From Alphaproteobacteria bacterium UBA6187 (GTDB taxonomy: Bacteria; Pseudomonadota; Alphaproteobacteria; Rickettsiales; UBA6187): a stretch of DNA of 64,000 nucleotides. Position 1 is the stretch's first letter. Each line of letters starts with the position of its first letter. Made by a program: the position numbers and the translations under genes. The stretch is taken from assembly GCA_002422795.1 (NCBI GenBank), contig DITJ01000004.1, positions 31,329 to 95,328 on the forward strand, in the 5' to 3' direction. The notes beneath the pieces are model-generated. The model was not told where the DNA came from. It searched no databases and was given only the letters and a program-made list of their open reading frames with translations. Shown piece after piece: positions 1,493 through 57,669 of this stretch.

Positions 1493-1765
1493 TCAGTCGG
1501 CTCTATCAGCCAGGCGGTATGCTTTTATTTGTGCCGGGGAAAGTCCCTCAGCAATATGCACCGGAACTTTTTGTAATCCCAACTGCTGCGCAGCCTGCAG
1601 GCGTGTGTGGCCTGCAATAATTACCATATCGACATCCACCACAATTGGCTGGCGGAAGCCATACTCTTTAATGGAGGCGGCAACCTTAGATATTGCAGCA
1701 TCATTCTTGCGAGGGTTCCGTGCATACGGAATCACCCGGTTTAGTGCAACCAATTCTACTTTCAT
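1493..1765 (-). CDS. ParB-like N-terminal (nuclease/ParBc) domain protein, probably truncated
   Basis: 90 aa with IIAGHTRLQAAQQLGLQKVPV and a terminal AYRLAD motif. That motif normally continues into a methylase or HTH domain in phage ParB-like proteins, but this ORF stops right after it. Confidence 0.5.
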   Translation of the reverse strand: MKVELVALNRVIPYARNPRKNDAAISKVAASIKEYGFRQPIVVDVDMVIIAGHTRLQAAQQLGLQKVPVHIAEGLSPAQIKAYRLADRAD

Positions 1766-1944
1766 AGGCCATTTCGTTTGTAAGAGGTTTAAGTATTTGA
1801 TATTACGCGATTCTGCCTCGTTCCAAACGAAACGAAATGCAAAGTTTTAGTCTGAGCCTGCGGAGATTCCGCGCCCGCCCTGCACCCGTGGGGGGACGGC
1901 CAGGGAGTACCTTTTTTTTAATCCATGTGATTGGTTGCGGTAGC

Positions 1945-2529: not shown

Positions 2530-2531
2530 AG

Positions 2532-3584
2532 TTAAACATTTTTTTGTTTTGAGAGTAGATTTGCCTCAGATTTATTTTGTTCATCTGGCCAATTGTCCCA
2601 TTGTTCTTTTTCATACTTAAAGAACTCACTATTCACTTTCCTGGAGACAAACGTGGGTATGTCAGAATCTTGAAAAGAAGAAAATACCATTCGATGAGCA
2701 TGTTCTGCAATTAAACGGCGTATCAATCTAGTATTTTCTATAGAAAATCTAGTGCCTCGTATTGGCGGACGATATCCAACTTGCGTATAGAGTAGGTGTT
2801 GAGGTCCCAATGGTAGAAAGAGTTCCGTGCCTTTACGCCCCCAACCACCAGAAAAATTATACTCTCCATTCATAGAATAGTTTAGTCTGACAACTGGATT
2901 ATCAGATGTAATCCAATTCATACCTATAGCTGGACGCATTATTGTCCATTTATGACGATGTAAAATATTTGCTGTATTCTCTAGTAAATACCGAATGCTC
3001 CAAATCCAAGAAGCTCTGCCTACGGCAGTTTCCGCTTTTATGGTACCAAATTTTTCTCCCTTCTTAATTTCTGTTGTTACTTGTAAAGGAAAAGATGAAG
3101 CCAGCTTTCCCATAGTAGTAGGAACTTTATCCCCACTATTTTTTAAGGCCACAAGTTTTGTAGGAAGGTCATTTAACACTTTATTTAAAATTTTGGGCAC
3201 ACTTTCTGCAGAAGATCTAAGGTGTTCTATCAGCCGTGCTGGAGTACGAGTATCCTGCAGAGCCATAAAACGTACTAATTTTCTCCAATCATCTATGGTT
3301 AGGTGTTGGTCTGTTACAGCTTTGTGAATAGCTCCTTCTGCAGGAGATTCATATTCATTAGAAAACCATTTTTCTATTTCATCACTTTCCTCTCCAGAAA
3401 TTTTCTGAGTATAGAGGTGTGGGTGATACGCTATTCCTTTGATATTTTTCTTTGCCCATAGGGGAACATTCTCATGAGAAACTAGAATATTATAAACCCA
3501 GATCTCACTAGCACAACACTCCCAGCGCTTCAGATATCCCTGTGAAATATAATGATTATCTTGGCAGAAATTAATGTTTTTCAT
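2532..3584 (-). CDS. DUF4238 domain protein (candidate single-gene anti-phage factor)
   Basis: Shows the family hallmarks NHYISQGYLKRW near the N-terminus, ALQDTRTPA, and WITSDNPVV. It lies 2 nt upstream of the gpZ-like gene in the prophage remnant. Confidence 0.7.
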   Translation of the reverse strand: MKNINFCQDNHYISQGYLKRWECCASEIWVYNILVSHENVPLWAKKNIKGIAYHPHLYTQKISGEESDEIEKWFSNEYESPAEGAIHKAVTDQHLTIDDWRKLVRFMALQDTRTPARLIEHLRSSAESVPKILNKVLNDLPTKLVALKNSGDKVPTTMGKLASSFPLQVTTEIKKGEKFGTIKAETAVGRASWIWSIRYLLENTANILHRHKWTIMRPAIGMNWITSDNPVVRLNYSMNGEYNFSGGWGRKGTELFLPLGPQHLLYTQVGYRPPIRGTRFSIENTRLIRRLIAEHAHRMVFSSFQDSDIPTFVSRKVNSEFFKYEKEQWDNWPDEQNKSEANLLSKQKNV

Positions 3585-4122: not shown

Positions 4123-5419
<1,297 letters not shown>

Positions 5420-5512
5420 TTCATATACATTCAGCTTATCTTCTAGGCAATAGTAAAAATTGACGTGTAGCTAAAGTAAGTTATATAATGGCTATTTTAA
5501 GTGTAAAAAATA

Positions 5513-8373: not shown

Positions 8374-8380
8374 ATAACAA

Positions 8381-8446
8381 ATTTAAGATTTAAGATGTTA
8401 GATTTAAGATGTATAAATCTGCAATCTTAAATCTTAAATCTTAAAT
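8381..8446. repeat. repeat-arm hairpin, TTAAGAT family
   Basis: atttaagatttaagatgttagatttaagat faces atctgcaatcttaaatcttaaatcttaaat. It ends 6 nt before the next start codon. Confidence 0.8.
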
Positions 8447-8452
8447 TTACTT

Positions 8453-9403: not shown

Positions 9404-9489
9404 TTCAATTTGAACGATTTGAGGGTTGTTTTTGCAGAAGCTACATGTTGCACCGCACCCATAGAATATACCTGCCACATTTGCGCATA

Positions 9490-9614
9490 ATACCGCCTCC
9501 TTATCTAATCACCCGCGTCGTCGTGCTGCGGTCTCGGTGTGCTCACGTATGTTTAATACGCTCTGCGCACCTAGCCTTGCACTCCTAGCGGATCGATTGA
9601 TAAGGAAGCGGTAT
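9490..9614. mobile_element. MITE-like element (TIR ATACCGCCTCCTTATC)
   Basis: The termini ataccgcctccttatc and gataaggaagcggtat are inverted repeats. The GC-rich core ...gctcacgtatgtttaatacgctctgcgc... is related to the cores at 12130, 13664 and 19840. Confidence 0.7.
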
Positions 9615-9789
9615 AAGTTTGTCGCTTGATTAGTTGTGTAAAGTTTATATATTGAAGTTGCGTGTAGAAATCCTATTTATAGGAAATCTGCTGCCCTGCC
9701 GAAAGGCAGGTTAAACTACAGGGGCGAAGGTTCCCTGCAGTTAGTCTGCTTTTCGGCGGGTTTATCAACTTCTAATTATGGAGGTAAAG

Positions 9790-11305
<1,516 letters not shown>

Positions 11306-11414
11306 GTTCTGTTGATATTTTATTAACCATTGCAAAGCTGTCATGAAGTGCGGGAAAGCAGAGGGTTGGGATAATCTCTCTTTGGTTTAATTCTCCGTCG
11401 CTTGCGGCGGTTCG

Positions 11415-11452
11415 CTATAGTTTCCTCTTTATTCTTAAAGAGGAAACTATAG
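11415..11452. repeat. 38-bp perfect palindrome ctatagtttcctcttt...aaagaggaaactatag
   Basis: It abuts and overlaps the first bases of the MITE at 11448. Confidence 0.6.
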
Positions 11453-11553
11453 CATTTCCCATTTTCAACAATCATGCGTCAATCATCGTCTCATGTAGTT
11501 CTCCTACACATCGCCTCGATTTTCTATGATTGTTGAAAAGCGAAAACGCTATA
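11448..11553. mobile_element. MITE, arm type A / core type 1
   Basis: tatagcatttcccattttcaacaatcatgc ... gattgttgaaaagcgaaaacgctata. It is roughly 90% identical to the copy at 29309..29414. Confidence 0.8.
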
Positions 11554-11584
11554 CTTATTTAATACACAGCCACTCGGGGCGGGG

Positions 11585-12289
11585 TTATTCGTTAAAAACA
11601 ACAACCGTGTGGGCCATTTTATCATGCCAGCCTTGACATTTCTTATCATAATATATCCATATAAAGCCCAATCCTAATGGTAGTATAGATATGATATACC
11701 CAATATAGCGTATGATTAGCTGCTTCCGAGAGGGCTTCTCGCCAGTTTTCGCGTCAACTATTTTCATCTTTAGTAAAATCTTGCCGGGGGTGGCAGAGCG
11801 ATATATCCAGAATAATATAACTACTATGGCAAGAACTATGTTTTGTAAGGTAAAGGAAGCAAGCTGCCCAATGATAAATTCTGCCACCTGCTCCTGAGAT
11901 AAATCTTCAGGTCTCAATGCGCCAGAAGCCAGTAGATTCTGAAGTTCCGCATTGCCTAAGGTGTTATGGAAAATTGTGAGTACGGGAATTAATACAATAA
12001 AACTTAATATTGAATCAATGGCACTTGCCAGCATACGCATACCAAAACCAGCATATTTTATTTCGCCGTCATTGGGCTTCTTCGACCACAAGCCGATTAC
12101 CTTACTAAAAAGGCCAGTATATTTTTCTAATACCGAGTTGCATTCTTTGAACGAGGGTGTCGTGCAGCGGTCTTGTCGGTGCGCACGTAGCAAGTCTACG
12201 CTTGCGCCCTCCTCGCCTAGCACTCCTACTCGTTCTTTGAATGCAACTCGGTATAATTTAACCTTAGAAGATGAATCGTTTTGCTTCAT
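11585..12289 (-). CDS. RDD family membrane protein (start uncertain; reading frame passes through a MITE)
   Basis: RDD core YAGFGMRMLASAIDSILSF plus 3 TM segments. The track start GTG 12322 lies inside the pal terminator stem. ATG 12289 has a TAAGGT SD-like motif. An alternative TTG near 12087, downstream of the MITE, also has TAAGGT. Confidence 0.65.
   Translation of the reverse strand: MKQNDSSSKVKLYRVAFKERVGVLGEEGASVDLLRAHRQDRCTTPSFKECNSVLEKYTGLFSKVIGLWSKKPNDGEIKYAGFGMRMLASAIDSILSFIVLIPVLTIFHNTLGNAELQNLLASGALRPEDLSQEQVAEFIIGQLASFTLQNIVLAIVVILFWIYRSATPGKILLKMKIVDAKTGEKPSRKQLIIRYIGYIISILPLGLGFIWIYYDKKCQGWHDKMAHTVVVFNE
12130..12254. mobile_element. MITE inside the RDD-family ORF
   Basis: 26-bp TIRs ataccgagttgcattctttgaacgag / ctcgttctttgaatgcaactcggtat. 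The core is related to the 9490 element. It is stop-free in the ORF frame. Confidence 0.75.
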
Positions 12290-12304
12290 GGCATACCTTA
12301 AATA

Positions 12305-12346
12305 ATAAAAAAATCCCGGCACAATTATAACATGTACCGGGATTTT
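12305..12346. terminator. bidirectional rho-independent terminator (pal side)
   Basis: aaaaaaatcccgg...ccgggattttt: a stem flanked by an A-run and a T-run, 27 nt downstream of the pal stop. Confidence 0.65.
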
Positions 12347-12372
12347 TAAAATCTAATTCTTACGAACTATAA

Positions 12373-12897
12373 TTATTTCTTGTCAACAAGAACAGTTACA
12401 GCGCGACGATTTTCAGCCCAAACAGCGGCATCAGAACCAGTTACAGCTGGACGCTCTTTGCCATAGCTTACAGTAGAAACCCTAGCAGCGCTTACGCCAA
12501 GTTTAACTAACTGATTTTTTGCAGCAGCAGCACGACGTGCACCTAGAGCAATGTTGTACTCTCTTGTGCCACGCTCATCGCAATGACCTTCAACAGTTAC
12601 TTTAACATCAGCATTTTTCTTCAACCAAGCAGCTTGCTTTTCAAGAGTCTTCTGAGCAGTAGCGCTTAAAGAAGAGCTATCATAACCGAAGAATACACGG
12701 TCGCTAGCTTTAGCGCCAGTTTTGCTTCCAGGAATTGGAGTGAAAGCTTCAAGGTTTTCGCTAGCAATTCTGTATTTTTCTTCAGCTTCGTTTGCAGAAG
12801 AACCAGCAGCGCTAGTTTTGCCTTTCATTGAGCTACAAGCAGTCATTAATAAAACTACAGAAACTACAGAAAATAACTTTAAAATTCTTGGTGACAT
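12373..12897 (-). CDS. pal: peptidoglycan-associated lipoprotein
   Basis: Lipobox LLMTAC and an OmpA-like C-terminal domain (GHCDERGTREYNIALGARRA, NRRAV). Confidence 0.9.
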   Translation of the reverse strand: MSPRILKLFSVVSVVLLMTACSSMKGKTSAAGSSANEAEEKYRIASENLEAFTPIPGSKTGAKASDRVFFGYDSSSLSATAQKTLEKQAAWLKKNADVKVTVEGHCDERGTREYNIALGARRAAAAKNQLVKLGVSAARVSTVSYGKERPAVTGSDAAVWAENRRAVTVLVDKK

Positions 12898-13095
12898 TGA
12901 GGTATTCCTTTTTTATAAATTTTTGGTTTTTTATATAATATTTTTGCCATCACAAAGTGAGAACAAATTATCTTTTATACAGGCTTATTACAGTCTTTTG
13001 TGTATATGGTCAACAAATAGAATTGTTCTATAACAAAAATTTGTAATAAGTTTTTTATGTGTTGCAACAATGCTACAACGACACGCTGTATTAAA

Positions 13096-13533: not shown

Positions 13534-13663
13534 TTTTATTTCCCCTGGTTTTATACAAATTGTTAAAGAGGGGGCGACATATATAGATATATTTATAAAA
13601 AAGCAAGTGGTTATGAAGGGGGAGGAGAGATTTTAACCGTGATGATTATATTGCATGCTCATT

Positions 13664-13812
13664 CTAGGCACTGTTAGCAAATTCTACTATATCTTGCTGC
13701 AAATAGTGTTTTTCTGCGATACGGTACTCACGTATGTCTATATACGCTGCGCTCCGTTTCTCAAAAAACACCATTTTCGCTACGTTATAGCAAATTTGCT
13801 AACAGTGCCTAA
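13664..13812. mobile_element. MITE (TIR CTAGGCACTGTTAGCAAATT), copy 1
   Basis: About 148 bp with 20-bp TIRs. Only about 4 differences from the copy at 19840..19987. Confidence 0.85.
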
Positions 13813-16018: not shown

Positions 16019-16112
16019 TATACTCATTCTGATTTAAACTGCCGTTTAGATACGAGTATTTTTTATTATAGGAAAAAGTTAAATCTGAAGTAATAGTGGC
16101 CCTATTTCAAGG
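16019..16112. mobile_element. half-copy of the MITE with TIR TATACTCATTCTGATTTAAACTGCCG
   Basis: It matches the reverse complement of the right half of the 17776..17939 element over about 90 bp. Confidence 0.7.
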
Positions 16113-16201
16113 ATTTTACTTTTTTCTATAATAAATTTAAAGACAAAGTATATAATCGGTAGTTTAAATTAGAATGAATATATTTTCTTTATAGGCAAAA
16201 C

Positions 16202-17253: not shown

Positions 17254-17360
17254 TATAGTGAATTTGCTTTTTATTTACGCTAGGAAACCCTTGTCGATGT
17301 GTAGGAGAACTACATGAGACGATGATTGACAACGCGTAAATAAAAATGAAATTTACTATA
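17254..17360. mobile_element. MITE, arm type B / core type 1
   Basis: Arms are tatagtgaatttgctttttatttacgc / gcgtaaataaaaatgaaatttactata. The 36-nt core is identical, in reverse complement, to the core of the 11448 element. Confidence 0.8.
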
Positions 17361-17775: not shown

Positions 17776-17939
17776 TATACTCATTCTGACTCAAACTTCC
17801 GATTATATACTTCGTCTTTATTTGTTGTATATAAAAAATTAAATCTTTGAAATAGAGCCACTATTCCTAAAGATTTAACTTTTACCTACAACAAAAAATA
17901 CTCGTATCTAAATCGGCAGTTTAAATCAGAATGAGTATA
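17776..17939. mobile_element. MITE with TIR TATACTCATTCTGA...TCAGAATGAGTATA, full copy
   Basis: About 164 bp with long imperfect TIRs. A 20-bp TIR remnant lies at 19321..19340. Confidence 0.75.
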
Positions 17940-19826: not shown

Positions 19827-19839
19827 CTCTTATTCTATG

Positions 19840-19987
19840 CTAGGCACTGTTAGCAAATTCTACTATATCTTGCTGCAAATATTGTTTTTCTGCGATACGG
19901 TGCTCACGTATGTCTATATACGCTGCGCTCCGTTTCTCAAAAAACACCATTTTCGCTACGTTTAGCGAATTTGCTAACAGTGCCTAG
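19840..19987. mobile_element. MITE (TIR CTAGGCACTGTTAGCAAATT), copy 2
   Basis: Near-identical to 13664..13812. Its right TIR contains the rsfS stop codon (cta at 19984..19986). Confidence 0.85.
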
Positions 19988-20429: not shown

Positions 20430-21020
20430 TTATTTTTCAAATCCATCCTGGGTTGAACTGTCATTTCTTATTTTTGTAGCTGAAGCCGGGTGGATTTCAA
20501 TATCAAGGAATGTCCATGCTGGCGGATTTGTGTAATTAAGCTGCTTTGCATCGTTAATTTTATATGCTGCAAATTTTGCGGCTACTTCACCAGTTAGCGC
20601 TTTTTCTTTTAAATCACCGCGATTAAACACAGCTATGGGCATTATTTCCATAATATCCTGCCATTTGTGCCATTTTGGAAATTGCAATAAATTATCAGCG
20701 CCCATAAGCCACACAAAATTATTTTTCGGATATTCTGCTTTAAGGGCAAGCATTGTATCATAAGTATAGGTTGTGCCTGAATTTATTTCAAAATCAGAAA
20801 CCTTAATTTGCGGGCAGTTTTCGGCAACTTGCCGCGCAATAGCAAGGCGGTTTTCAAATTCAGCCATGCCTTGTTTTTCTTTAAGCGGATTTTGCGGGGA
20901 TACCAGCCACCAGATTTCATCAAGGCCAAGAAGCTTTATGGCCTGCTTGCTTATATAAACATGGCCGGCATGTGCAGGGTTGAATGAGCCGCCAAGTAGG
21001 CCGATTTTAGGTGGGGGCAT
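20430..21020 (-). CDS. nadD: nicotinate-nucleotide adenylyltransferase
   Basis: GGSFNPAHAGH nucleotidyltransferase motif and ISATKIR-like HPASATKIR. Confidence 0.9.
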   Translation of the reverse strand: MPPPKIGLLGGSFNPAHAGHVYISKQAIKLLGLDEIWWLVSPQNPLKEKQGMAEFENRLAIARQVAENCPQIKVSDFEINSGTTYTYDTMLALKAEYPKNNFVWLMGADNLLQFPKWHKWQDIMEIMPIAVFNRGDLKEKALTGEVAAKFAAYKINDAKQLNYTNPPAWTFLDIEIHPASATKIRNDSSTQDGFEK

Positions 21021-21171
21021 GTTTTACGACTTTTGTTTGGAAAGATTGCGCTTCTTATTAAAAGCACTAGCATACAATTAAGAGTTGTGAACTTTCCTCT
21101 CCCTCAGGGAGAGGGAATCTGCACGGCTCCTTATGAACGGTAGTACATTATTATCTTATATGCAAGACACC

Positions 21172-22431
21172 CTATCTCGGCCTAATGCTGCCATTACTTC
21201 TTACCACATATTTATAAGTAGTCAGTTGCTCCACCCCAACTGGCCCACGCGCGTGCAGCTTGCCTGTGGAAATACCAATTTCCGCGCCCATGCCAAATTC
21301 TCCGCCATCCGCAAACTGGGTGGAAGTATTATGCATTACAATGGCGCTATCAATACGGTTTAGGAACTCGGCTGCTGCAATGTTATCAGCAGTTATAATA
21401 GAATCAGTGTGGTGCGAGCTGTGAGTGTTGATAAAATCAATCGCTTCACTAATGCCGGAAACTATTTTCACAGAAATTATTGCATCCAGATATTCCGTAT
21501 CCCAATCGGCATCTGTGGCGGGCACTATGCTGCTATCAATTTTCCTTGCTGCCTCATCGCCGCGTATTTCGCAACCCTCAGATTTAAGCGCGGCAATAAT
21601 TAATGGCAAAGCTTTATCTGCAACTTTGCTATCAATCACCAGCGATTCGGTAGCCCCGCAAACACCAAGGCGGCGCATTTTTGCGTTACTAACCACATTT
21701 ACAGCCATGTCTAAATCAGCTTTTTCGTGTATATAAGTGTGGCAATTGCCATCCAGGTGCAGCAAAGTTGGCACGCGGCTTTCATCCATAACCCTTTTGC
21801 ACAGGCCTTTGCCACCGCGCGGCACGATTACATCAATATATTCAGGCATTGCAAGCATTGCGCCGACTGCCTCCCTATCTTGCACAGGCACTAGCTGGAT
21901 AGCATTTTCAGTAATTCCGGCACTGCGCAAGCCCTCATGCAAACTATCAACAATTGCTTTTGAAGAATTAAAGCTTTCCGAGCCACCGCGCAAAATAGCG
22001 CTATTGCCTGATTTCAGGCATAGTGCCCCTGCATCTGCGGTAACATTCGGACGCGATTCATAAATTATGCCAATTACACCAAGTGGAACACTCACGCGCG
22101 ATATATCCAACCCGCTTGGCCTGTCCCAATTCGCATGGGTTTTTCCCACCGGGTCTGGCAGCAGGGCGATTTCTTCCAGGCTTTTTGCAATTGCGCCAAT
22201 GCGGCTTTCGTTTAGTTCCAGGCGATCAAGCAGTGCTTTATCTAATCCTTTCGTCTTGCCCGCATCCATATCTAATTTATTGGCTGCAAGGATTTTATCA
22301 GTATTTTTACGCAGCGCCGCCGCCGCCGCGCAAAGCCCGGTATTTTTATCTTCCGCACTTGTACTGGCAAGCTCAAGAGCGGCAATTTTAGCTTGTTTAC
22401 CAAGCTGCTGCATCATTTGTTTTATGTTCAT
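21172..22431 (-). CDS. proA: glutamate-5-semialdehyde dehydrogenase
   Basis: 419 aa ALDH-like protein with IYESRPNV and NTSTQFADGGEFGMGAEIGIST. It lies downstream of proB. Confidence 0.95.
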   Translation of the reverse strand: MNIKQMMQQLGKQAKIAALELASTSAEDKNTGLCAAAAALRKNTDKILAANKLDMDAGKTKGLDKALLDRLELNESRIGAIAKSLEEIALLPDPVGKTHANWDRPSGLDISRVSVPLGVIGIIYESRPNVTADAGALCLKSGNSAILRGGSESFNSSKAIVDSLHEGLRSAGITENAIQLVPVQDREAVGAMLAMPEYIDVIVPRGGKGLCKRVMDESRVPTLLHLDGNCHTYIHEKADLDMAVNVVSNAKMRRLGVCGATESLVIDSKVADKALPLIIAALKSEGCEIRGDEAARKIDSSIVPATDADWDTEYLDAIISVKIVSGISEAIDFINTHSSHHTDSIITADNIAAAEFLNRIDSAIVMHNTSTQFADGGEFGMGAEIGISTGKLHARGPVGVEQLTTYKYVVRSNGSIRPR

Positions 22432-22437
22432 TCGTTA

Positions 22438-22548
22438 TCAGAGTTCAGAATTCAGAGTTCAGAGTTCAGTTAAGTTAAGTAGTAAGACATCATATATAAA
22501 AATATAAAAAATCCAATACTGAACTCTGAACTCTGAACTCCGAACTCT
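22438..22548. repeat. repeat-arm hairpin, TCAGAGT family, between proB and proA
   Basis: tcagagttcagaattcagagttcagagttcag faces ctgaactctgaactctgaactccgaactct. It ends 6 nt from the proA start. Confidence 0.85.
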
Positions 22549-22554
22549 AAAACC

Positions 22555-23676
22555 CTACTCCTCTAATACTAAATTATCCCTATGTATCAGCTCATCACGT
22601 CCTGAAAAGCCTACCATATTCTCAATTTCTTCACTTTGCTGGCCCATTATCAGCCTGGCATCGTCTGATGTATAAGCTGCAATGCCAACGCCGATTTTGT
22701 GCAACCTGCTATCTTTTATCATAACTGTATCGCCGCGGTCAAATCTTCCGGTTATATCCATAACTCCGGCAGGAAGCAGGCTTTTGCCGCCTTTTAATGC
22801 CTTTACCGCCCCATCATCAATGATAATTTCCCCTTGCACATTAAGGCTGCTGGCTATCCAGCGTTTTCGCGCTCTTCTGGGGTTATCGGATGATAAAAAC
22901 ACCGTATATTTAGCAGATTTCTCCAACGATTTAACCGGGTTTTTTTCCTTACCAGAAGCAAGAATCATCGTGCAGCCGCTAGATACTGAAATTTTAGCCG
23001 CCTCTATCTTTGTAACCATACCGCCAGAGCCAATTCCGCTGGATAAAGCCCCGCTTGCCATATCCTCTATCTGCCTTGTAATTTCCTTGACCTCAGGAAT
23101 ATGTTTTGCATCAGGCTCCAGACGCGGATTGCCAGTATAAAGCCCATCAACATCAGAAAAAAGGATTAATAAATCGGCGCTTACCATTTGCGCCACGCGC
23201 GCAGCCAGGCGATCATTATCGCCAAAGCGGAGTTCCTCGGTTGCTACCGTGTCATTTTCGTTAATAATCGGCACAACGCCGTTTAATAATAATGTTTCAA
23301 GCGTATTTTTTGCATTCAGGTAATTCCGGCGGTTTTCTGAATCGAATATAGTAAGCAGAATTTGCGCCACCGGAATATTGTTTTTTCCCAGGAATTCCTG
23401 ATATTTACGCACCAGCTCCGGCTGGCCGCAGGCTGCCGCTGCCTGTTTTTCTTCCAGTTTTAATGTGCGCTTACCACTGGTTATATATTTCCTTCCCAAA
23501 GCTACCGAGCCGGAAGTAACAATAATTACATCCTTGCCGCGCTGTTTTAATGACGCAACATCACTTGCCAGAGTTTTAAGCCAATCCTCACGCAAATGAC
23601 CTCCATCCTGGTCTACCATTAATGATGAGCCAACTTTGATAACTATCTTTTTTGCTTTTTCTATTAGTGTAGTCAT
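22555..23676 (-). CDS. proB: glutamate 5-kinase
   Basis: Amino-acid kinase domain (IVIKVGSS, NENDTV) plus a C-terminal PUA domain. Confidence 0.95.
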   Translation of the reverse strand: MTTLIEKAKKIVIKVGSSLMVDQDGGHLREDWLKTLASDVASLKQRGKDVIIVTSGSVALGRKYITSGKRTLKLEEKQAAAACGQPELVRKYQEFLGKNNIPVAQILLTIFDSENRRNYLNAKNTLETLLLNGVVPIINENDTVATEELRFGDNDRLAARVAQMVSADLLILFSDVDGLYTGNPRLEPDAKHIPEVKEITRQIEDMASGALSSGIGSGGMVTKIEAAKISVSSGCTMILASGKEKNPVKSLEKSAKYTVFLSSDNPRRARKRWIASSLNVQGEIIIDDGAVKALKGGKSLLPAGVMDITGRFDRGDTVMIKDSRLHKIGVGIAAYTSDDARLIMGQQSEEIENMVGFSGRDELIHRDNLVLEE

Positions 23677-23692
23677 TTTTTTGTACTTTACC

Positions 23693-23907
23693 GTTAGTGT
23701 ATTAGGTGATAGGTAATAGGTTTCAGGTGATGGGGAAGAAAAATATAGTAAATTTCATTTTTATTTACGCGTTGTCGTTCAGCGGATTCATAAAATTCAC
23801 GTAGTATACCTACGCTAAAATTTTATTCACCTTGAACTCCTAGCGTAAATAAAAAGCAAATTCACTATACTTCCCTAACACCCATTCCCTAACACCTATC
23901 ACCTAAT
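23693..23907. repeat. repeat-arm hairpin (TAGGTGA-type) whose loop carries a MITE
   Basis: The arms at 23693..23735 and 23870..23907 end in 12 perfectly complementary nt (taggtgataggt / acctatcaccta). The MITE at 23744..23869 lies between them. Confidence 0.7.
23744..23869. mobile_element. MITE, arm type B / core type 2
   Basis: Arms are tatagtaaatttcatttttatttacgcg / gcgtaaataaaaagcaaattcactata. The core cggattcataaaattcacgtag...aaaattttattcaccttgaactcctag is shared with the 26169, 27809 and 28698 elements. Confidence 0.8.
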
Positions 23908-23912
23908 TTATT

Positions 23913-24146
23913 ATGCCACTACCAGCAAGTACAATAGAAAATTTAATTTTAGAAGCTTTTCCTGATGCAAAAATCAAAATTGTTGATTTGGCGGGGGATA
24001 ATGACCATTGGTCGGTGGAAGTAATATCGAAAGATTTCCAGGGCAAGAGCCGCATTGAGCAGCATAAAATGGTATATGCAGCGCTTAAAGGGAAAATGGG
24101 CGGGGAGTTGCACGCGATGCAATTAAAAACTGGTTCTGGCGATTAA
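23913..24146 (+). CDS. BolA family protein
   Basis: 77 aa with DHWSVEVISKDFQGKSRIEQHKMVY...LHAMQLKT. It sits in the usual position upstream of grxD. Confidence 0.85.
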   Translation: MPLPASTIENLILEAFPDAKIKIVDLAGDNDHWSVEVISKDFQGKSRIEQHKMVYAALKGKMGGELHAMQLKTGSGD

Positions 24147-24155
24147 GGTTTTTTT

Positions 24156-24542
24156 ATGGAAAAAGATTTTGATTTGTGGACTGGGCATAAGAAGAAAGCG
24201 CATGGTGCGAATAAGCGCGCTTCGTTTAAAGAAGTTGAAGTCTGGTGGTGTTGTATAGGCGCTAATGTAGGGGATGAAGAAGACGGCAAAGGACTATATT
24301 TTACCAGACCAGTATTGATATTTAAAAAGTTTAACCAGAATATTTTTCTGGGTATTCCACTAAGTACACAAATAAAAGAAAGTCGCTTTTATTATAAATT
24401 ACATTTTAAAGGTATAGAACAAAGCGCACTATTATCACAACTAAGAATATTTGATGCAAAAAGACTTAGGGAGAGGATGGGCGAGTTACCAGCAGATGAA
24501 TTTAACAAGCTAAAGGAAAAAATAAAACAACTAATTTTATAG
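24156..24542 (+). CDS. PemK/MazF-like toxin-fold protein, solitary
   Basis: EVWWCCIGANVGDEEDGKG..FTRPVLIFKKF....FLGIPLSTQIK....SALLSQLRIFDAKRL matches the pattern of the solo PemK/MazF-like family. No small partner ORF is present on either side. Confidence 0.65.
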   Translation: MEKDFDLWTGHKKKAHGANKRASFKEVEVWWCCIGANVGDEEDGKGLYFTRPVLIFKKFNQNIFLGIPLSTQIKESRFYYKLHFKGIEQSALLSQLRIFDAKRLRERMGELPADEFNKLKEKIKQLIL

Positions 24543-24549: not shown

Positions 24550-24584
24550 CCGCCCCCTTTACGGGGGCGGCCGCGGGTATTCCC
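24550..24584 (+). other. two consecutive all-GC hairpins after the MazF-like gene
   Basis: ccgccccc-tttac-gggggcgg followed by cggg-tatt-cccg. No T-run follows. They are conspicuous in AT-rich DNA. Confidence 0.5.
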
Positions 24585-26363: not shown

Positions 26364-27248
26364 ATGAACATGTTTAAAGGTGCAATAACCGCGCTTATTA
26401 CGCCATTCAAAGATGGCAAAGTTGATGAAAAAGCGTATCAGGCATTTATAGAGTGGCAGATTAATGAAGGAATCCATGGCCTTGTGCCGTGCGGTACTAC
26501 AGGCGAATCCCCAACCCTTACCCACGAAGAGCATAACCGTGTGATTGAATTATGCGTGGAAGTGGCAAAGGGCAGGGTGCCTGTGATTGCTGGAACCGGT
26601 TCAAATTCAACAGAAGAAGCTGTTGCCCTTTCTGTTCACGCTGAAAAATGCGGTGCGGATGCAGTGCTGGTTGCCGCGCCTTATTATAACAAACCTAACC
26701 AGGAAGGTTTATTCCAGCATTATAAAGCGATTAATGATGCCATTAATATCCCGATTATAACTTACAATATCCCTGGCCGTTCCGTGGTTGATATTGCTGA
26801 TGAAACGACCGTGCGTATGGTTCATGAGCTTAAAAACATTGTTGGTATAAAAGATGCTACAGGCAATTTGGTTCGCGTAAGTACTTTAAGGATGAAGCTG
26901 GAAGGAAGAGGGTTCTGCCAGTTATCTGGTGATGACGGCACGGCTATTGCTTTTAATTCGCAAGGCGGTGTGGGCTGCATATCCGTTACATCCAATATTG
27001 CCCCTAAAATGGTGGCAGGTGTTCAGAATTTATGGTTTGCCGGAAAAGCAAAAGAGGCATTGGAACTGCATGATAAATTAATGCCGCTGCATGTGGCAAT
27101 GTTTTGCGATACCAGCCCTGGCCCTGCAAAATATGCAGCGAGCCTGCTAAATCTATGCGCACCCGATGTGCGCCTGCCAATTGTTGCCCCTGCAGAAGAT
27201 AAAAAGGTGCAAGTGAAAAAAGCAATGCGGGAGGTGGGTATCATTTAG
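26364..27248 (+). CDS. dapA: 4-hydroxy-tetrahydrodipicolinate synthase
   Basis: GTTGES, YNIPGRS and the active-site Lys context GIKDATG. Confidence 0.95.
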   Translation: MNMFKGAITALITPFKDGKVDEKAYQAFIEWQINEGIHGLVPCGTTGESPTLTHEEHNRVIELCVEVAKGRVPVIAGTGSNSTEEAVALSVHAEKCGADAVLVAAPYYNKPNQEGLFQHYKAINDAINIPIITYNIPGRSVVDIADETTVRMVHELKNIVGIKDATGNLVRVSTLRMKLEGRGFCQLSGDDGTAIAFNSQGGVGCISVTSNIAPKMVAGVQNLWFAGKAKEALELHDKLMPLHVAMFCDTSPGPAKYAASLLNLCAPDVRLPIVAPAEDKKVQVKKAMREVGII

Positions 27249-27316
27249 GGATTGGGATTTAGGGATTGGGGCGCAGAAGAGCCTCCCAATCCCTAATCCC
27301 CATTCCCTAATCCCTA
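27246..27316. repeat. repeat-arm hairpin, TAGGGAT/GGGATT family
   Basis: tagggattgggatttagggattgggg faces cccaatccctaatccccattccctaatcccta. It overlaps the dapA stop and ends 6 nt before the smpB ATG. Confidence 0.85.
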
Positions 27317-27322
27317 TTAAGA

Positions 27323-28499: not shown

Positions 28500-28697
28500 T
28501 TGGTTTAAAATTTAAGCTGCTATCTCATTCCACATTATTTTGGTTAACATAATAAAGTGGAATGGTTTCGTTATCGTAAAGATATATGATATAGCAATGC
28601 TTTAGCTAAAGACACTTGGGTCATGCTCAGGTGTTTTTTGCTGTTATAGGCATGAAATGATATTTCTATAGCCTTTTAGTTATGCTATAGTTTTCAA

Positions 28698-28880
28698 TAT
28701 AGCATTTCCCATTTTCATTTATACGTCGTCACTCTTCGGATTCACAAAATTAGCGAACCTTCGGTATGATGAAATATAAGTAAACTTTATTTCATCACAC
28801 TTCGGTTTCACCTAGGTTTACTAGGCTAAAATTTTGTTCACCTCGAATTCCTAGTAGAAATGAAAAGCGGAAGCGCTATA
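28698..28880. mobile_element. MITE, arm type A / core type 2 (long form)
   Basis: Starts tatagcatttcccattttca (arm A) and ends gaaatgaaaagcggaagcgctata. The interior matches the 26169 element. Confidence 0.75.
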
Positions 28881-28891
28881 ATATAAAAAGA

Positions 28892-29513
28892 TTGAAAATG
28901 ACTGGTTTGCAAATAAATCCAACCTTAGCGACCGCCACCGAGCAAGATTTACAAGAAGTACAGGAGATTTATTCGTATTATTTTTTAAATGACACTGTAA
29001 CATTTGAAGAAGTGCCCCCATCTGTTGAAGAGATGATTGCATGGTGGAGGTTGGTAACTGAGAAACTTCTGCCGTATATTGTGATAAAGAATGATAAGAA
29101 AATTATAGGATACGCATATGCTTCACCTTATCACCATAGGAGCGCTTATCGTTTTACCATTGAAGAATCAATATACGTCGAAAAAGATTGGCGTGGTTTT
29201 GGGGTAGGCAAGCAGTTACTTGGTGAAATATAAAACGATGCACTGAACAGGGATATAAACAAATGCTTGCTAGTATTACTAGCGCAGGGAACCCAGCATC
29301 AATCAAACTATAGTATTTCCCATTTTCAATAATGATGCGTCGATCATCGTCTCATGTAGCTCACCTACACATCGACTCGATTTCCTATCATTATTGAAAA
29401 GCGAAAACACTATACATGAGAAATTTGGATTTACAGAAGTTGGGCCACTAAAAAATATAGGTTTTAAATTTGGCCAGTGGCTTGATACAGTCATTATGCA
29501 GAAAGCGCTGTGA
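28892..29513 (+). pseudogene. GNAT (phosphinothricin-acetyltransferase-like) N-acetyltransferase, disrupted
   Basis: The N-terminal part (…RGFGVGKQLLGEI) stops at 29231. The family continues in another frame (IKRCTEQGYKQMLASITSAGNPASIKL), which implies a 1-nt loss near 29228. After a 106-bp MITE it resumes exactly as HEKFGFTEVGPLKNIGFKFGQWLDTVIMQKAL*. Confidence 0.75.
29309..29414. mobile_element. MITE, arm type A / core type 1, inserted in the GNAT gene with TA duplication
   Basis: The junction is aaac-TA[tag...cac]TA-catgag. Removing the element and one TA restores the codons AAA CTA CAT GAG (K L H E). Confidence 0.85.
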
Positions 29514-30008: not shown

Positions 30009-31505
30009 TTATTGTTGGGCAATTTTTTCGTCTTCATTGTTGCCGCGAGAGGCAATTTTTGTATTAGCAAGGCCGCTTTCCTGTTTTTGGGGCTTAAATG
30101 TTGGTATTGGAACTTTTCTTCCGTTTATCCCAACCCGTATAGGTTTAAGCTCATCCATGTCGCTTATTGCCTCAATAGAGGAGGCTATTTTTGTACCGAC
30201 AATGCCGATTTCCTTAAATGTTGGCACCGGAACCTGTTTTCCATTTACCCCAACCCGTATAGGTTTGAACTCATCCATTTCGCTTATTGCCTCAATAGAG
30301 GAGGTTATTTTTGTACCGACAATGCCGACTTCCTTAAATGTTGGCACCGGAACCTGTTTTCCATTTACCCCAACCCGCTTAGGTTTAAACTCATCAATAT
30401 TTCCTACTTCCTCTATATCAATAGAGGAAGCAGCCTGTTCGTAAGAAACTACATTCACTTCCTGTGATGGCTGGGTATTTGTTGCACTTATTACCGGTTC
30501 ATTAACATCAGTGACTGTTTTTGCAGATGCCGCTACATTGCGTGAAAATGGTGCTTTGTCATTAGTTGAGCCGCCATTATTTGAAGATGTAGTTGTAGGT
30601 TTATCGGTATTCTTTTGTTTTTTATTCGAGGCTGTATTTTTTGTAGTATTGGTATTTGAAACTTCAGAACTTGCAGATTTTCCATTGGAAATATTATAAA
30701 ACGCCTGATCCAGAAGCTTAACCATATTTGCATCGCGGCTTTTAATGCTCCTCCCCCCCATCACAACACCTACCAGGCTTTTGCCGGAGCGGTTTGCTGA
30801 AGTTACCAGGTTAAAGCCCGAAGCCCTTATGTAGCCAGTTTTAAGGCCATCAGCGCCACGGTAGTTTTTAGTAACCCTGTTGTGCGAGAAAATGGTTTGC
30901 CCCTTATATTTGAAGCTTGAGCGGGAAAATAATGGGTAATATTGCGGATAATCCCTTTTAAGTGCTACAGCAAGGCGCGCCATGTCATAGGCTGTAGTAA
31001 CCTGTTTATTATTAGGAAGCCCGGAAGCATTCGCAAAATTGGTGTTTTTCATGCCAAGTTTCTTTGCGGTCTCGGTCATTTTTAATGCAAATTTTGGCTC
31101 GGAGCCGCTAATTGCTTCAGCAAGCACCACAGAGGCATCATTGGCAGATTTTATAACTACTGCGTTAATGGCATCCTGCATGGTGATTGTTTGCCCGGCG
31201 CGCAATGCTATAGAGCTTGGTGACTGGCTTGCTGCAAAGGAAGAAACACGCAGTTTCTGATTTATGTTCAGGGTGCCTTGTTCCAGGGATTGAAAAGCAA
31301 GGTATAACGTCATCATTTTAGTAAGTGAGGCCGGATATCGTTTCTTCCCGGCATTTTCCTGATGCAGCACACTGCCTGTCTCTGCATCAATTACTAAAGA
31401 GGCGTATTTTTCATTTTCAGCGGCTGCATAGCATGGCGCCGCGAATAAAGCCAATACTAATAAGCCAGTTACAGACTTTAAAATACTTTTTTTAAAGAAT
31501 CCCAC
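30009..31505 (-). CDS. D-alanyl-D-alanine carboxypeptidase (S11, PBP5/6-like) with a repeat-bearing C-terminal extension
   Basis: Signal peptide plus SxxK (SLTK), SxN (SAN) and KTG (LKTGY). The C-terminus carries three 40-aa tandem repeats (DEFKPxRVGVNGKQVPVPTFKExGIVGTKIxSSIEAIS). Confidence 0.85.
   Translation of the reverse strand: MGFFKKSILKSVTGLLVLALFAAPCYAAAENEKYASLVIDAETGSVLHQENAGKKRYPASLTKMMTLYLAFQSLEQGTLNINQKLRVSSFAASQSPSSIALRAGQTITMQDAINAVVIKSANDASVVLAEAISGSEPKFALKMTETAKKLGMKNTNFANASGLPNNKQVTTAYDMARLAVALKRDYPQYYPLFSRSSFKYKGQTIFSHNRVTKNYRGADGLKTGYIRASGFNLVTSANRSGKSLVGVVMGGRSIKSRDANMVKLLDQAFYNISNGKSASSEVSNTNTTKNTASNKKQKNTDKPTTTSSNNGGSTNDKAPFSRNVAASAKTVTDVNEPVISATNTQPSQEVNVVSYEQAASSIDIEEVGNIDEFKPKRVGVNGKQVPVPTFKEVGIVGTKITSSIEAISEMDEFKPIRVGVNGKQVPVPTFKEIGIVGTKIASSIEAISDMDELKPIRVGINGRKVPIPTFKPQKQESGLANTKIASRGNNEDEKIAQQ
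30093..30440. repeat. 3 x 120-bp tandem repeat inside the PBP gene
   Basis: The marker cttaaatgttgg recurs at 30093, 30213 and 30333. Copies 2 and 3 are nearly identical. Confidence 0.85.
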
Positions 31506-32626: not shown

Positions 32627-32659
32627 AAGATTGCAGATTATTTTTTAATCTTAAATCTT
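32627..32659. repeat. short repeat-arm hairpin, TTAAGAT family
   Basis: aagattgcagatt faces aatcttaaatctt, between mazG and rluC. Confidence 0.55.
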
Positions 32660-32661
32660 AA

Positions 32662-35127: not shown

Positions 35128-35199
35128 TAGTTGCTAGTTGCTAGTTGCTAGTTGCTAGTGGCTGGGTACTAGTAACTAGTAACTAGCAACTAGCAACTA
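35128..35199. repeat. repeat-arm hairpin, (TAGTTGC)x4 facing (CTAGTAAC/CTAGCAAC)x4
   Basis: It fills the exbB-exbD spacer and ends 5 nt from the exbD ATG. TAG recurs at period 7, so it falls in all three frames on both strands. Confidence 0.9.
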
Positions 35200-41580: not shown

Positions 41581-41602
41581 TAAACATAACATTAAAATAA
41601 TT

Positions 41603-45716: not shown

Positions 45717-45722
45717 AAGGAT

Positions 45723-45858
45723 AGAATGTTAGAGTGTAAGAATGTAAGAATGTAAGAGCATTAGAATCGCAACGCAATCTTTTTGTGTTTCGATAAAATA
45801 AGGTAGTGCAGTAAGTATATATTTTTTACGCTCTTACATTCTAACACTCTTACATTCT
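45723..45858. repeat. repeat-arm hairpin, GTAAGAAT (8-nt) family
   Basis: agaatgttagagtgtaagaatgtaagaatgtaagagc faces gctcttacattctaacactcttacattct, with a 70-nt loop. It fills the comF / C-N hydrolase spacer. Confidence 0.8.
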
Positions 45859-45867
45859 CATGCTCTT

Positions 45868-49262: not shown

Positions 49263-49361
49263 GGAGTGATAAGTAGTAAGTGTTAAGTGTCTATTAAACT
49301 TAGGTTTGTATTGTTGTTAATCTGAGTTCGCTAGCCACTAGCCACTTACCACTTACCACTC
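49263..49361. repeat. repeat-arm hairpin (GTAAGTG / TAGCCAC-TTACCAC)
   Basis: ggagtgataagtagtaagtgttaagtg faces ctagccactagccacttaccacttaccactc. Confidence 0.7.
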
Positions 49362-49378
49362 TCTTAACGGAGAAAGTG

Positions 49379-50602: not shown

Positions 50603-50647
50603 GATTTAAGATTTATACTTTTAATCTTAAATCTTAAATTTTAAATC
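50602..50647. repeat. repeat-arm hairpin, TTAAGAT family
   Basis: ggatttaagattta faces taatcttaaatcttaaattttaaatc. It starts at the iscS stop codon. Confidence 0.7.
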
Positions 50648-50691
50648 TAAAATTTTCTAAGCCCGTAAACGTAAATATTGGAGATAAAACA

Positions 50692-51066: not shown

Positions 51067-51073
51067 TTAGTTG

Positions 51074-51146
51074 TCAGAGTTTAGAATTCAGAGTTCAGTG
51101 TTACGGCTGACTTTTCTGAACTCTGAATTCTGAATTCTGGACTCTA
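51074..51146. repeat. repeat-arm hairpin, TCAGAGT family
   Basis: tcagagtttagaattcagagttcag faces ctgaactctgaattctgaattctggactcta. It ends 5 nt before the iscA ATG. Confidence 0.85.
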
Positions 51147-51151
51147 AATAT

Positions 51152-51609: not shown

Positions 51610-52200
51610 ATGACTATAAAATGCTGGAACTGCAATACTCCATTAGGTGCAACAGATTTATTCTGCCAACTTTGCGCAAAAATCCAGCCGCCAGCGCAAA
51701 CCGATCATTTCACCCGCCTTTCCATGCCACATGATTTCGACCTTGGCATAAAAAAGCTTGAAGTTGCTTATTTTTCCATGCAGACAAAACTCCACCCCGA
51801 CCGCTTTACTGCTAAAAGCGAAAAGGAAAAACTATTTTCCATGCAGCAATCAATGAGTGTGAACGAGGCTTATGAGGCACTAAAAAGCCCGCTTAGCCGC
51901 GCCGAATATTTATTGAAACTTGAAGGCATAATTGTTAATGCAGATAATAGCACAGTAAAGCCATCGCAGGAATTATTGATGGAAAGCCTTGAGGCGCGTG
52001 AGGCATTATCTAATGCAAAAACACCGGAAGATATAAGGCAGATTACCATTGAAAATATGGAACACCGCCTTGAAGCAATAGATTCAATAAAGCAGAATTT
52101 TATTGATAGAAAATTTGAAGATGCAGCACAAAATACTATAAGGCTGCGTTATTTAGAAAAATTAAATGAGGAGATAAAAAGGGAGGGGACAAAGGGATAA
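51610..52200 (+). CDS. hscB: Fe-S protein assembly co-chaperone HscB (with N-terminal Cys4 finger)
   Basis: CWNC...CQLC, a J-domain with the LHPD motif, and a C-terminal helical bundle. Confidence 0.85.
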   Translation: MTIKCWNCNTPLGATDLFCQLCAKIQPPAQTDHFTRLSMPHDFDLGIKKLEVAYFSMQTKLHPDRFTAKSEKEKLFSMQQSMSVNEAYEALKSPLSRAEYLLKLEGIIVNADNSTVKPSQELLMESLEAREALSNAKTPEDIRQITIENMEHRLEAIDSIKQNFIDRKFEDAAQNTIRLRYLEKLNEEIKREGTKG

Positions 52201-52313
52201 GGGAATAAGGGATTAAGAGAGAAAGAAAAGGGAAAGGGAGAAGAGAATCCTTACTAATACCTTGTCAATTTACCTTAATCCCTTAATCCCTTATTCCCTT
52301 ATCCCTTTGTCCC
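52186..52313. repeat. repeat-arm hairpin, ATAAGGGA (8-nt) family, 32-bp perfect arms
   Basis: gggacaaagggataagggaataagggattaag (52186..52217, including the last hscB codons and the stop) is the perfect reverse complement of part of 52273..52313. Confidence 0.9.
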
Positions 52314-52322
52314 TTCACTGCT

Positions 52323-57577: not shown

Positions 57578-57582
57578 AGTAA

Positions 57583-57660
57583 TTTTAGATTTAAGAAGTA
57601 AGATTTAAGATTTACGAATCATAAATCATAAATCATAAATCATAAATCATAAATCTTAAA
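57583..57660. repeat. repeat-arm hairpin, TTAAGAT family, with an (ATCATAA)x5 microsatellite arm
   Basis: ttttagatttaagaagtaagatttaagattta faces aatcataaatcataaatcataaatcataaatcataaatcttaaa. It ends 9 nt before the rsmA ATG. Confidence 0.8.
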
Positions 57661-57669
57661 TGTATTTTT

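Follow-up and report, generated by a model that had tools for sequence, protein, structure and literature searches.

The closest described counterparts of the elements reported here are dispersed arrays of tandem heptamers. One group of these, the short tandemly repeated repetitive (STRR) elements, was reportedly covered by Mazel et al. in 1990 and by Vioque in 1997. Cyanobacterial STRRs are heptamer arrays of several families, with ~100 copies per genome (PMC2670836). Hairpins of 7-bp STRRs lie between hupS and hupL, where they have been suggested to stabilise the transcript or to couple translation (PMC2670836), and hupSL is one operon with the hairpin in its spacer (PMC2661322). STRRs are also reported inside a functional gene, that for RNase P RNA. 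Xanthomonas genomes carry 70–75 GGGAATC pairs each, which are "always" convergent and lie mostly between co-directional open reading frames (ORFs), near the upstream ORF (Rehm et al, 2015, PMC4692102). These GGGAATC repeats and the GGGGA(T/C)T repeats of Nostoc usually have ~4 units per array, are dispersed, are ~90% intergenic and vary between close species (PMC4692102). TAACTGA direct repeats, found in marine Beggiatoaceae, cyanobacteria and Bacteroidetes, have 2–6 copies and end a few nucleotides before start codons that lack a Shine-Dalgarno (SD) sequence (MacGregor, 2015, PMC4679880); their patchy cross-phylum distribution suggests horizontal spread, and a role as a binding site for an RNA- or single-stranded DNA (ssDNA)-binding protein has been proposed (PMC4679880). 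Neither the origin nor the function of such heptamer arrays (STRR since 1990, GGGAATC, TAACTGA) is established in the literature searched. Here we describe elements of this kind in a 64-kb stretch of Alphaproteobacteria bacterium UBA6187 (the window; 64,000 nt of contig DITJ01000004.1), with a focal example in the spacer between proB and proA.

All of the window elements follow one plan, in which two tandem arrays of one 7-nt (in some families 8-nt) unit are arranged convergently around a variable loop. They combine tandem 7-nt units, dispersal, intergenic position between co-directional genes and convergent pairing, which are the features of a kind already described as cyanobacterial STRR hairpins and as convergent GGGAATC pairs in Xanthomonas; the phenomenon itself is thus not new. 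None of the named units, STRR1–3 (CCCCAGT, TTGGTCA, CAACAGT), GGGAATC or TAACTGA, is tandem in the window, and GGGATT(T/G) and AAGGGAT go no further than similarity to GGGNATC, so we regard the elements as new families of the same kind. These two families are near-identical in type to the GGGAATC and GGGGA(T/C)T repeats. Compared with the GGGAATC repeats, however, the window has ~9 coexisting families, most of which do not form G-quadruplexes (G4) and two of which have 8-nt units; its arrays are nearly all paired and are dense in core operons, where they occupy five consecutive isc junctions; and its host is an uncultured Rickettsiales-like alphaproteobacterium. STRR1–3 differ from the window families in both unit and phylum, as STRRs were defined as markers of heterocystous cyanobacteria. 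TAACTGA repeats resemble the window elements as intergenic heptamer arrays closing just ahead of SD-less start codons, but they are direct in nearly every case (1 inverted among 170), consist of one unit and keep a fixed orientation to the gene downstream, whereas the window has inverted pairs of many units.

Other small dispersed intergenic repeats also form hairpins and are co-transcribed with flanking genes, including REP/BIME/REPIN, Correia (nemis), ERIC and Rickettsia palindromic elements (RPEs). Some of them are targets of RNase III or RNase E, or barriers to 3'-exonucleases, within operons, and RPEs, which measure 100-150 bp and have a family consensus, insert in frame into ORFs. All of these elements have a fixed consensus over their whole length; REPs, imperfect palindromes of 20-40 nt with a conserved head, need a REP-associated tyrosine transposase (RAYT), and Correia elements have a TA duplication. 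In the window none of these features was found, and its hairpins have tandem-unit arms, which REP, Correia, ERIC and RPE elements lack. Considering the evidence set out below, they are probably selfish or neutral palindromic heptamer arrays that have been copied between loci and remodelled by slippage, with incidental effects on RNA.

The focal hairpin takes up nearly all of the 123-nt proB-proA spacer (22432-22554), which separates two minus-strand ORFs (gene identities here and below are from Pfam):

21172..22431, minus strand: proA (gamma-glutamyl phosphate reductase), downstream of the focal hairpin; Pfam Aldedh
22432..22554: focal hairpin of the AGAGTTC family in the proB-proA spacer, with arms 22438-22470 and 22518-22548 and loop 22471-22517
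22555..23676, minus strand: proB (glutamate 5-kinase), upstream of the focal hairpin; Pfam AA_kinase and PUA

Its left arm (22438-22470) reads TCAGAGT TCAGAAT TCAGAGT TCAGAGT TCAG and its right arm (22518-22548) reads ACTGAACT CTGAACT CTGAACT CCGAACT CT, the reverse complement of the left. By inverted-repeat finder, the arms are TCAGAGT arrays of 31–33 nt, 94% complementary over 31 nt, around an A+T-rich loop of 47 nt. Folded as RNA on the sense (minus) strand, the hairpin has a free energy (dG) of -59.4 kcal/mol compared with -22.5 +/- 3.4 for shuffled sequences (z = -11.0), and 0/200 shuffles were as good. The original prediction, made from the sequence of this stretch, had proposed a proB-proA hairpin with an arm of TCAGAGT repeats that shares its repeat unit with the iscU-iscA spacer. 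Arm sequence, complementarity and fold all bear out the hairpin, and the iscU-iscA hairpin (51067-51151) has the same unit and even the same order of variant units. The proBA hairpin is identical in sequence in two further assemblies.

Across the window, Tandem Repeats Finder (TRF), the inverted-repeat finder and a periodicity scan agree on at least 14 hairpins in which both arms consist of tandem 7- or 8-nt units, belonging to ~9 unit families. The period is 7 in 12 hairpins and 8 in two, with 2–7 copies per arm (TRF and periodicity scan). Arms span 13–48 nt and loops 0–135 nt, in line with the variable unit numbers and loops that had been predicted, and the stems are A+T-rich and 25–45 bp long, with roughly 27–47 pairs in the minimum free energy folds. 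Such arrays are far beyond chance: 27 arrays of period 7 or 8 were found, compared with 2.27 +/- 1.76 in 40 dinucleotide shuffles, and the contrast is 14 against 0.03 for strong arrays and 7 against 0 for strictly paired ones. Besides the focal element, the hairpins are as follows:

5329..5420: AGGTTTC x5 / CCTGACA-type hairpin in a divergent spacer, with one periodic mismatch per unit
8379..8448: ATTTAAG-family hairpin that fills the mlaC-eamA spacer
[quoted passage not shown]
27243..27318: GGGATT(T/G) hairpin of period 7 at the dapA-smpB junction, with G4 and C-rich motifs in its arms
32627..32661: short, weak member of the ATTTAAG family in the spacer between mazG and rluX (pseudouridine synthase), dG about -8 to -10 kcal/mol (-9.6)
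35128..35199: TAGTTGC x4.5 hairpin that fills the exbB-exbD spacer, with 32-nt arms that are 94% complementary, dG -55 kcal/mol
45720..45867: AGAATGTA octamer hairpin, GTAAGA(A/G)T type, between a comF-like gene and a CN-hydrolase gene
49265..49362: TAAGTGG-family hairpin between a nifS-like gene and iscS
50603..50656: ATTTAAG-family hairpin between iscS and iscU, with arms of 13 and 34 nt; an SD is kept ahead of iscU
51067..51151: AGAGTTC hairpin, paralogue of the focal one, that fills the iscU-iscA spacer, with arms 51074-51098 and 51116-51146 and a 17-nt loop
51503..51604: GAGTGTAA octamer hairpin, GTAAGA(A/G)T type, that fills the iscA-hscB spacer; its homologues in L002 and L004/L005 show a compensatory change (GTGTAA/TTACAC to GTATAA/TTATAC)
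52180..52319: AAGGGAT(A/T) hairpin of period 7-8 between hscB and hscA, with 46-nt arms that are 89% complementary
57582..57664: hairpin of the ATTTAAG family between surA and ksgA, with pairing broken by homogenisation of the 3' arm to AATCATA x5

Within these 64 kb there are thus 2 loci with the AGAGTTC unit, 4 with ATTTAAG and 2 with the octamer. The iscU-iscA paralogue folds at -40.1 kcal/mol (z = -8.2). Of the groupings proposed from the sequence at the outset, the GTAAGA(A/G)T unit is a clear octamer at both of its loci (45720-45867 and 51503-51604), and the TTAAGAT family (ATTTAAG in the list above) is clear at 8379-8448, 50603-50656 and 57582-57664, while its fourth member (32627-32661) is short and weak. 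The GGGAT group has a common core but not a common unit (GGGATTT/GGGATTG at 27243-27318, AAGGGAT(A/T) at 52180-52319). Four families come in addition to those: AGGTTTC/CCTGACA (5329-5420), TAGGTGA (23696-23912), TAGTTGC (35128-35199) and TAAGTGG (49265-49362). An Rfam scan of the window placed no family over any hairpin, its single hit being one tRNA. The window's sole four canonical G-quadruplex motifs (two G-rich, two C-rich) fall in the arms of both GGGAT-type hairpins (27248-27307, 52181-52305), matching the G4-forming GGGNATC repeats of Xanthomonas and Nostoc. The hscA-lptD spacer (54183-54260) opens with GGGGTGGTTAGTGGTCAGT ... CACTTATCGCTCC ... ACTACTCC and is possibly a decayed fifteenth hairpin of TAAGTGG type.

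The age of the hairpins was judged from orthologous loci in relatives, which were retrieved by exact-protein look-ups (L-numbers denote relatives' or metagenome contigs). The source genome has 41% G+C, and the nearest named relatives of HscB, IscA and ProA are metagenome-assembled genomes (MAGs) labelled Rickettsiaceae, Rickettsiales or Alphaproteobacteria bacterium; a profile search gave only distant MAGs of Rickettsiaceae and Rickettsiales. At proB-proA, the spacer is 10 nt in L142/L143 (ProA 81% identical); in L141 (ProA 82%) it is 533 nt (9468-10000) with unrelated content, including a signal recognition particle (SRP) RNA gene. That gene lies on the opposite strand and, at 53 bits, exceeds the gathering score; two matches resembling sRNA-Xcc1 fall just under threshold. 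The iscU and iscA genes are 1 nt apart in L003, overlap in L004 and are 8 nt apart in L133/L134 (IscA 91%), while L135 (IscA also 91%) has a 96-nt hairpin of the AGGTTTC/CCTGACA family there instead of AGAGTTC. The iscA-hscB and hscB-hscA genes abut or overlap in L003, with overlap at hscB-hscA; in L002 (HscB 93%), a hairpin of the TAGGTGA family takes the place of the window's AAGGGAT units between hscB and hscA, and the two hairpins share the loop core GGGA(G)AAGA(GA)ATCCTTAC. The iscA-hscB octamer hairpin is common to the window, L002 and L004/L005 and absent from L003. No hairpin of this type was found in ~64 kb from relatives at ~80% ProA identity, compared with 14 in the 64-kb window, nor in 20 kb each of L006 and L007 (57–59% HscB identity). 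As relatives with 75–91% identical proteins have these junctions either tight or differently filled, the hairpins appear, on comparison of sequences, to be recent lineage-specific insertions into formerly tight junctions, with gain, replacement and decay in short evolutionary time. Such lineage specificity and fast turnover argue against a conserved regulatory function.

One relative carries a tandem-armed hairpin inside a gene, the only in-ORF case seen. In L009, a Rickettsiales MAG of 59% G+C, a 69-nt CAGTTGC/GCAACTG hairpin lies in frame inside hscA (11785-11853, in the ORF 10971-12920), which resembles the STRR in the RNase P RNA gene. An RPE-like insertion was considered for it and rejected, since the alignment shows that a variable segment has been replaced with nearly no net change in length. 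The same HscA carries a separate 15-residue insertion further upstream, and a spacer of L009 holds CTGAACT x3.

Copying between loci is indicated by details that members of one family share. The proBA and iscUA copies align at 88% identity over 40 nt on the left side and 33 nt on the right. In both, the variant units come in the sequence [GTTRTCA][GAGTTYA][GAATTCA][GAGTTCA], and CYGRACTCTAAA is the shared right end. The two copies lie in the same plus-strand orientation, though transcription of proBA is from the minus strand and that of isc from the plus strand. Other families share features across genomes: the asymmetry of AGGTTTC against CCTGACA, with its one periodic mismatch, recurs at 5329-5420 in the window and at iscU-iscA in L135, and the TAGGTGA hairpins at 23696-23912 and at hscB-hscA in L002 share 'GTGTTAGGGAAG' beside the loop. 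By simple arithmetic on ~1,170 strand-collapsed heptamer classes, ~0.08 pairs of matching units would be expected among 14 hairpins, and at least 7 are observed. The claim that these are dispersed families and not independent palindromes is thus upheld by shared variant-unit order, shared ends and recurrence at unlinked loci. Some variant units are homogenised in one arm only (AATCATA x5 at 57617-57661, opposite ATTTAAG; GTAACTA x2 at 35168-35181; also 5386-5420), and these, together with the unequal arms, look like the signature of slippage within an arm. Slippage, which the original prediction had raised, would account for local remodelling but not for the sharing between loci.

All 14 hairpins are intergenic. 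Twelve lie at co-directional junctions, two in divergent spacers and none between convergent genes. Along the isc cluster, five junctions in a row are occupied, each by a different family. Paired regions start near the upstream stop codon and fill most of each spacer; these positions were taken from folds of the spacer alone, as 30-nt gene flanks let coding sequence pair and distort the distance from stop to stem. At hscB-hscA, the last 7 codons of hscB and its stop codon come from the 5' arm of the hairpin. After hairpins, 8/12 downstream genes lack an SD, a difference with p = 0.09 in a genome where SD use is weak throughout. As the 3' arm covers the would-be SD position in 8/12 cases, initiation of the downstream gene may depend on terminating ribosomes that unwind the base of the stem.

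The arms also obey an orientation rule, which we call G-first: the 5' arm has more G than C and the 3' arm more C than G in 14/14 hairpins (two-sided binomial p = 1.2e-4). A hairpin reads as its own reverse complement, so the rule holds on both strands and is not a trivial result of gene direction; the C-first mirror arrangement is a different structure, and a rare one. The same arrangement is found in the "always" convergent GGGAATC pairs of Xanthomonas. In 120 metagenome contigs, G-first AGAGTTC hairpins outnumber C-first ones by 35 to 3, and over all families and loci the figures are 40 and 8, some of the 8 being artefacts of adjacent hairpins. Candidate causes are that a C-rich arm is never single-stranded and so offers no loading site for Rho, that the arm beside the downstream start is kept free of start codons and SD-like sequences, or that whatever generates the arrays is directional. 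A further idea, stop codons in every frame of the 5' arm, was rejected as a general cause on inspection, since AGAGTTC and AGGTTTC units contain none.

Beyond this lineage, at least 120 metagenome contigs, ranging in G+C from 0.28 to 0.70, contain (GAGTTCA)x3. In 30 of these 120, AGAGTTC...GAACTCT hairpins with diverse loops are present, and many arrays are solitary. Over the relatives' loci and the contigs retrieved with the AGAGTTC probe, 141 different units were counted, a figure from contigs selected for AGAGTTC; with the same selection in mind, a small universal vocabulary of heptamers is unsupported. One contig (L060) carries TAACTGA x4 and further heptamer arrays beside an AGAGTTC hairpin. 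Viral contigs gave just 3 matches to (GAGTTCA)x3, with no sign of phage carriage. Three of the probe's contigs (L093, L095, L117) contain many AGGGTTT arrays (TTTAGGG, the plant-type telomere repeat), 32 across the three, so part of the metagenome matches may be eukaryotic.

Taken together, these observations suggest how selfish or neutral arrays might arise and persist. Arms would be copied from locus to locus by some mechanism that leaves no evident target-site duplication, then remodelled in place by unit slippage and sometimes by correction from arm to arm, and they would accumulate in co-directional spacers because they are harmless there. In the mRNA, the arms should pair into a long A+U-rich stem without a U-tract, and RNA polymerase would for that reason be expected to read through. 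[quoted passage not shown] Side effects on RNA are nonetheless conceivable. Long stems are expected substrates of RNase III and barriers to 3'-exonucleases, as in REP-stabilised mRNAs, and cleavage or protection of this sort, predicted here from stem length, could give the segments of one mRNA different stabilities. The stem may also occlude the downstream ribosome-binding region and make translation dependent on ribosomes finishing the upstream gene. As RNA, the closest analogy is offered by the intercistronic RNase III sites of phage T7 early mRNA, which are conserved, single-copy and functional and have internal loops that direct cleavage. For the window hairpins, RNase III cleavage is a prediction from stem length, the roughly 27–47 predicted pairs exceeding the ~20 bp of near-perfect double-stranded RNA that such a site takes.

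Several points weigh against the account of selfish or neutral copies. The near-exact filling of the spacers and the 8/12 SD-less downstream genes could reflect function. Three hairpins (proBA, iscUA and iscA-hscB) fold 12–16 kcal/mol better on the sense strand by virtue of G-U pairs, which could mean selection at the RNA level. Between the window and L004, the iscA-hscB hairpin has undergone a compensatory change on both arms (GTGTAA/TTACAC to GTATAA/TTATAC), which selection for pairing would yield too. Loops of same-family copies are unrelated (47 nt in proBA, 17 nt in iscUA), and this is unlike ordinary MITE transposition and leaves the copying step unexplained. Comparison of filled with empty junctions gave no convincing target-site duplication, and the 53 window ORFs include no transposase, RAYT or reverse transcriptase. 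Finally, no variation in copy number came to light in three assemblies of this strain; they match base for base over the hairpins and are uninformative on slippage.

Some of these points would be expected if the hairpins were functional post-transcriptional elements of operons under selection, serving as RNase III or exonuclease-barrier sites, as translational-coupling devices or as arrays for an RNA- or ssDNA-binding protein. Such elements could well sit at 12/14 co-directional junctions, filled end to end, with a 3' arm that stops a few nucleotides short of the start codon of an SD-less gene; the compensatory change and the three sense-stable hairpins fit as well, the G-first rule could reflect a need at the RNA level, and stability or coupling roles have been suggested for STRR hairpins and TAACTGA repeats (PMC2670836, PMC4679880). 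We still consider selected elements unlikely. Relatives with 75–91% identical proteins have nothing or another family at the same junctions, arms have drifted out of pairing at 57617-57661 and 50603-50656, the two AGAGTTC copies are oppositely oriented relative to transcription, and the SD difference is not significant. Nor is there an overall sense-strand bias in G-U pairs (26 sense vs 20 antisense over the hairpins), as three hairpins strongly favour sense and two favour antisense. With mixed results from the tests of RNA selection and with conservation lacking, selfish or neutral DNA is the reading we favour, as the probable one, over selected regulators. Ordinary transcription signals, whether terminators or attenuators that split proB from proA and the isc genes or promoters in the A+T-rich loops, are highly improbable. 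The stems are indeed very stable, and one weak promoter-like match (9 of 12; minus strand, 22530-22501) runs across the focal arm and loop upstream of proA, but promoter-like matches are at or below shuffle level (9 vs 7.3; 20 vs 33.6). Intrinsic terminators combine a short G+C-rich stem with a U-tract; the window hairpins have neither, no T-run follows any 3' arm, and a terminator scan of 21000-24200 and 45000-58000 called none of them, while short G+C-rich hairpins of the usual terminator type sit elsewhere in the window (e.g. 21093-21117, 24551-24571). In addition, the genes abut or overlap in relatives' operons, and the operon with a comparable hairpin in the Nostoc hupSL spacer is transcribed as one unit (PMC2661322). 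The view that the hairpins are not simple strong terminators, voiced from their position in operons, therefore stands as far as sequence can tell.

Two further explanations concern how the arrays came about. Each hairpin might have grown in place from a short palindrome by replication slippage and template switching, families being alike because certain heptamers expand easily. Variant units homogenised within single arms and unequal copy numbers between the arms of one hairpin suit this idea, as do the window and L002 hairpins at hscB-hscA, which share a loop core but differ in arm units, as if the arms had turned over in place. Further, AGAGTTC arrays in contigs of GC 0.28-0.70 fit convergence, and a preference of polymerase slippage for 7-nt units has been proposed in literature cited in PMC4692102. 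A purely local origin is nevertheless unlikely for copies that share variant-unit order and ends, as at proBA and iscUA, or an asymmetric AGGTTTC/CCTGACA arm pair at unlinked loci of two genomes; at least 7 matching pairs against ~0.08 expected speak against it, and more weakly, as the contigs were AGAGTTC-selected, so do the 141 units, which offer no small vocabulary to force convergence. We think it improbable overall. Transposition of a conventional, non-autonomous kind (MITEs or REP/REPIN-like elements), driven in trans by a transposase or RAYT from elsewhere in the genome, would explain long terminal inverted repeats, multi-copy families and intergenic insertion, and the same genome has at least 5 clear MITE-like families, one with 98% identical copies. 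An IS630-type transposase is encoded on a relative's contig, and the in-frame hairpin in L009 hscA is reminiscent of RPEs. The hairpins do have the inverted arms of MITEs, but target-site duplications were not found, loops of one family lack a conserved sequence, and tandem-unit arms of variable length are unlike those of MITEs or REPs; no fixed consensus runs across the hairpins as in REPs, and the window encodes neither transposase nor RAYT. Transposition of this conventional sort thus seems very unlikely.

A more speculative possibility, which we hold to be a long shot but would not set aside as lightly as conventional transposons, is that convergent heptamer arrays are generated or mobilised by a directional, sequence-specific agency that phyla share or that has been transferred between them. 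It might be an HUH/RAYT-like enzyme that works on folded single strands, or templated extension of 3' ends at breaks with subsequent joining. If it existed, such a generator would jointly explain the G-first rule, the copying of arms without loops, the independent copy numbers of the arms and the occurrence of one and the same AGAGTTC hairpin in genomes of 35% to 70% G+C, and this Rickettsiales-like lineage, with its recent burst, would be a place to find its mechanism.

Relative to the described systems, the window adds a non-cyanobacterial lineage with an apparent recent burst and many coexisting families, octamers among them. Its graded relatives, with empty, filled and differently filled junctions, allow statements that are rarely possible for such arrays, namely that they are insertions, that they are copied between loci and that they turn over quickly. 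The convergent G-first rule is extended to many unit families and to metagenomes, and it constrains models of origin or tolerance. There are practical consequences as well. The hairpins break short-read assemblies, as the Logan contig L132 ends at or near the hscB-hscA hairpin, and, as the hscB stop codon inside a hairpin arm illustrates, they can mislead the prediction of operons, terminators and gene ends.

The window also contains at least 5 families of MITE-like elements, ~110-170 bp long, whose long terminal inverted repeats frequently begin with TATAG or TATAC:

11445-11556, 29305-29415 and 28691-28887: MITE-like elements
16019-16182 and 17776-17939: MITE-like elements
17254-17360 and 23741-23872: MITE-like elements
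46604-46786: MITE-like element
13661-13786 and 19837-19962: MITE-like elements

The 98% identity of one copy pair indicates that its family was recently active, and the IS630-type transposase encoded on a relative's contig (L137) could move such elements. Three tandem-armed hairpins have MITE-like elements in their loops: the TAGGTGA hairpin upstream of proB (23741-23872), that at iscA-hscB of L002 (1-70) and that at iscS-iscU of L137 (9275-9524). Hairpin loops seem to be preferred or tolerated sites for their insertion.

Longer repeats, tandem or dispersed, are found within genes of the window. A 114-nt unit occurs ~4 times (37759-38309) in a TMEM43-like ORF (36001-38538), a 120-nt unit occurs 2.5-3 times (30093-30452) in the 3' part of a minus-strand D-Ala-D-Ala carboxypeptidase ORF, and repeats of ~880 nt (42634-44818) make up part of a 1145-aa ORF (41459-44896) with no Pfam match. 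At the left edge of the window lies a gene cluster resembling those for phage tails or gene-transfer agents (391-3584; Rcc01698_C, ParB_N, Minor_tail_Z, DUF4238).

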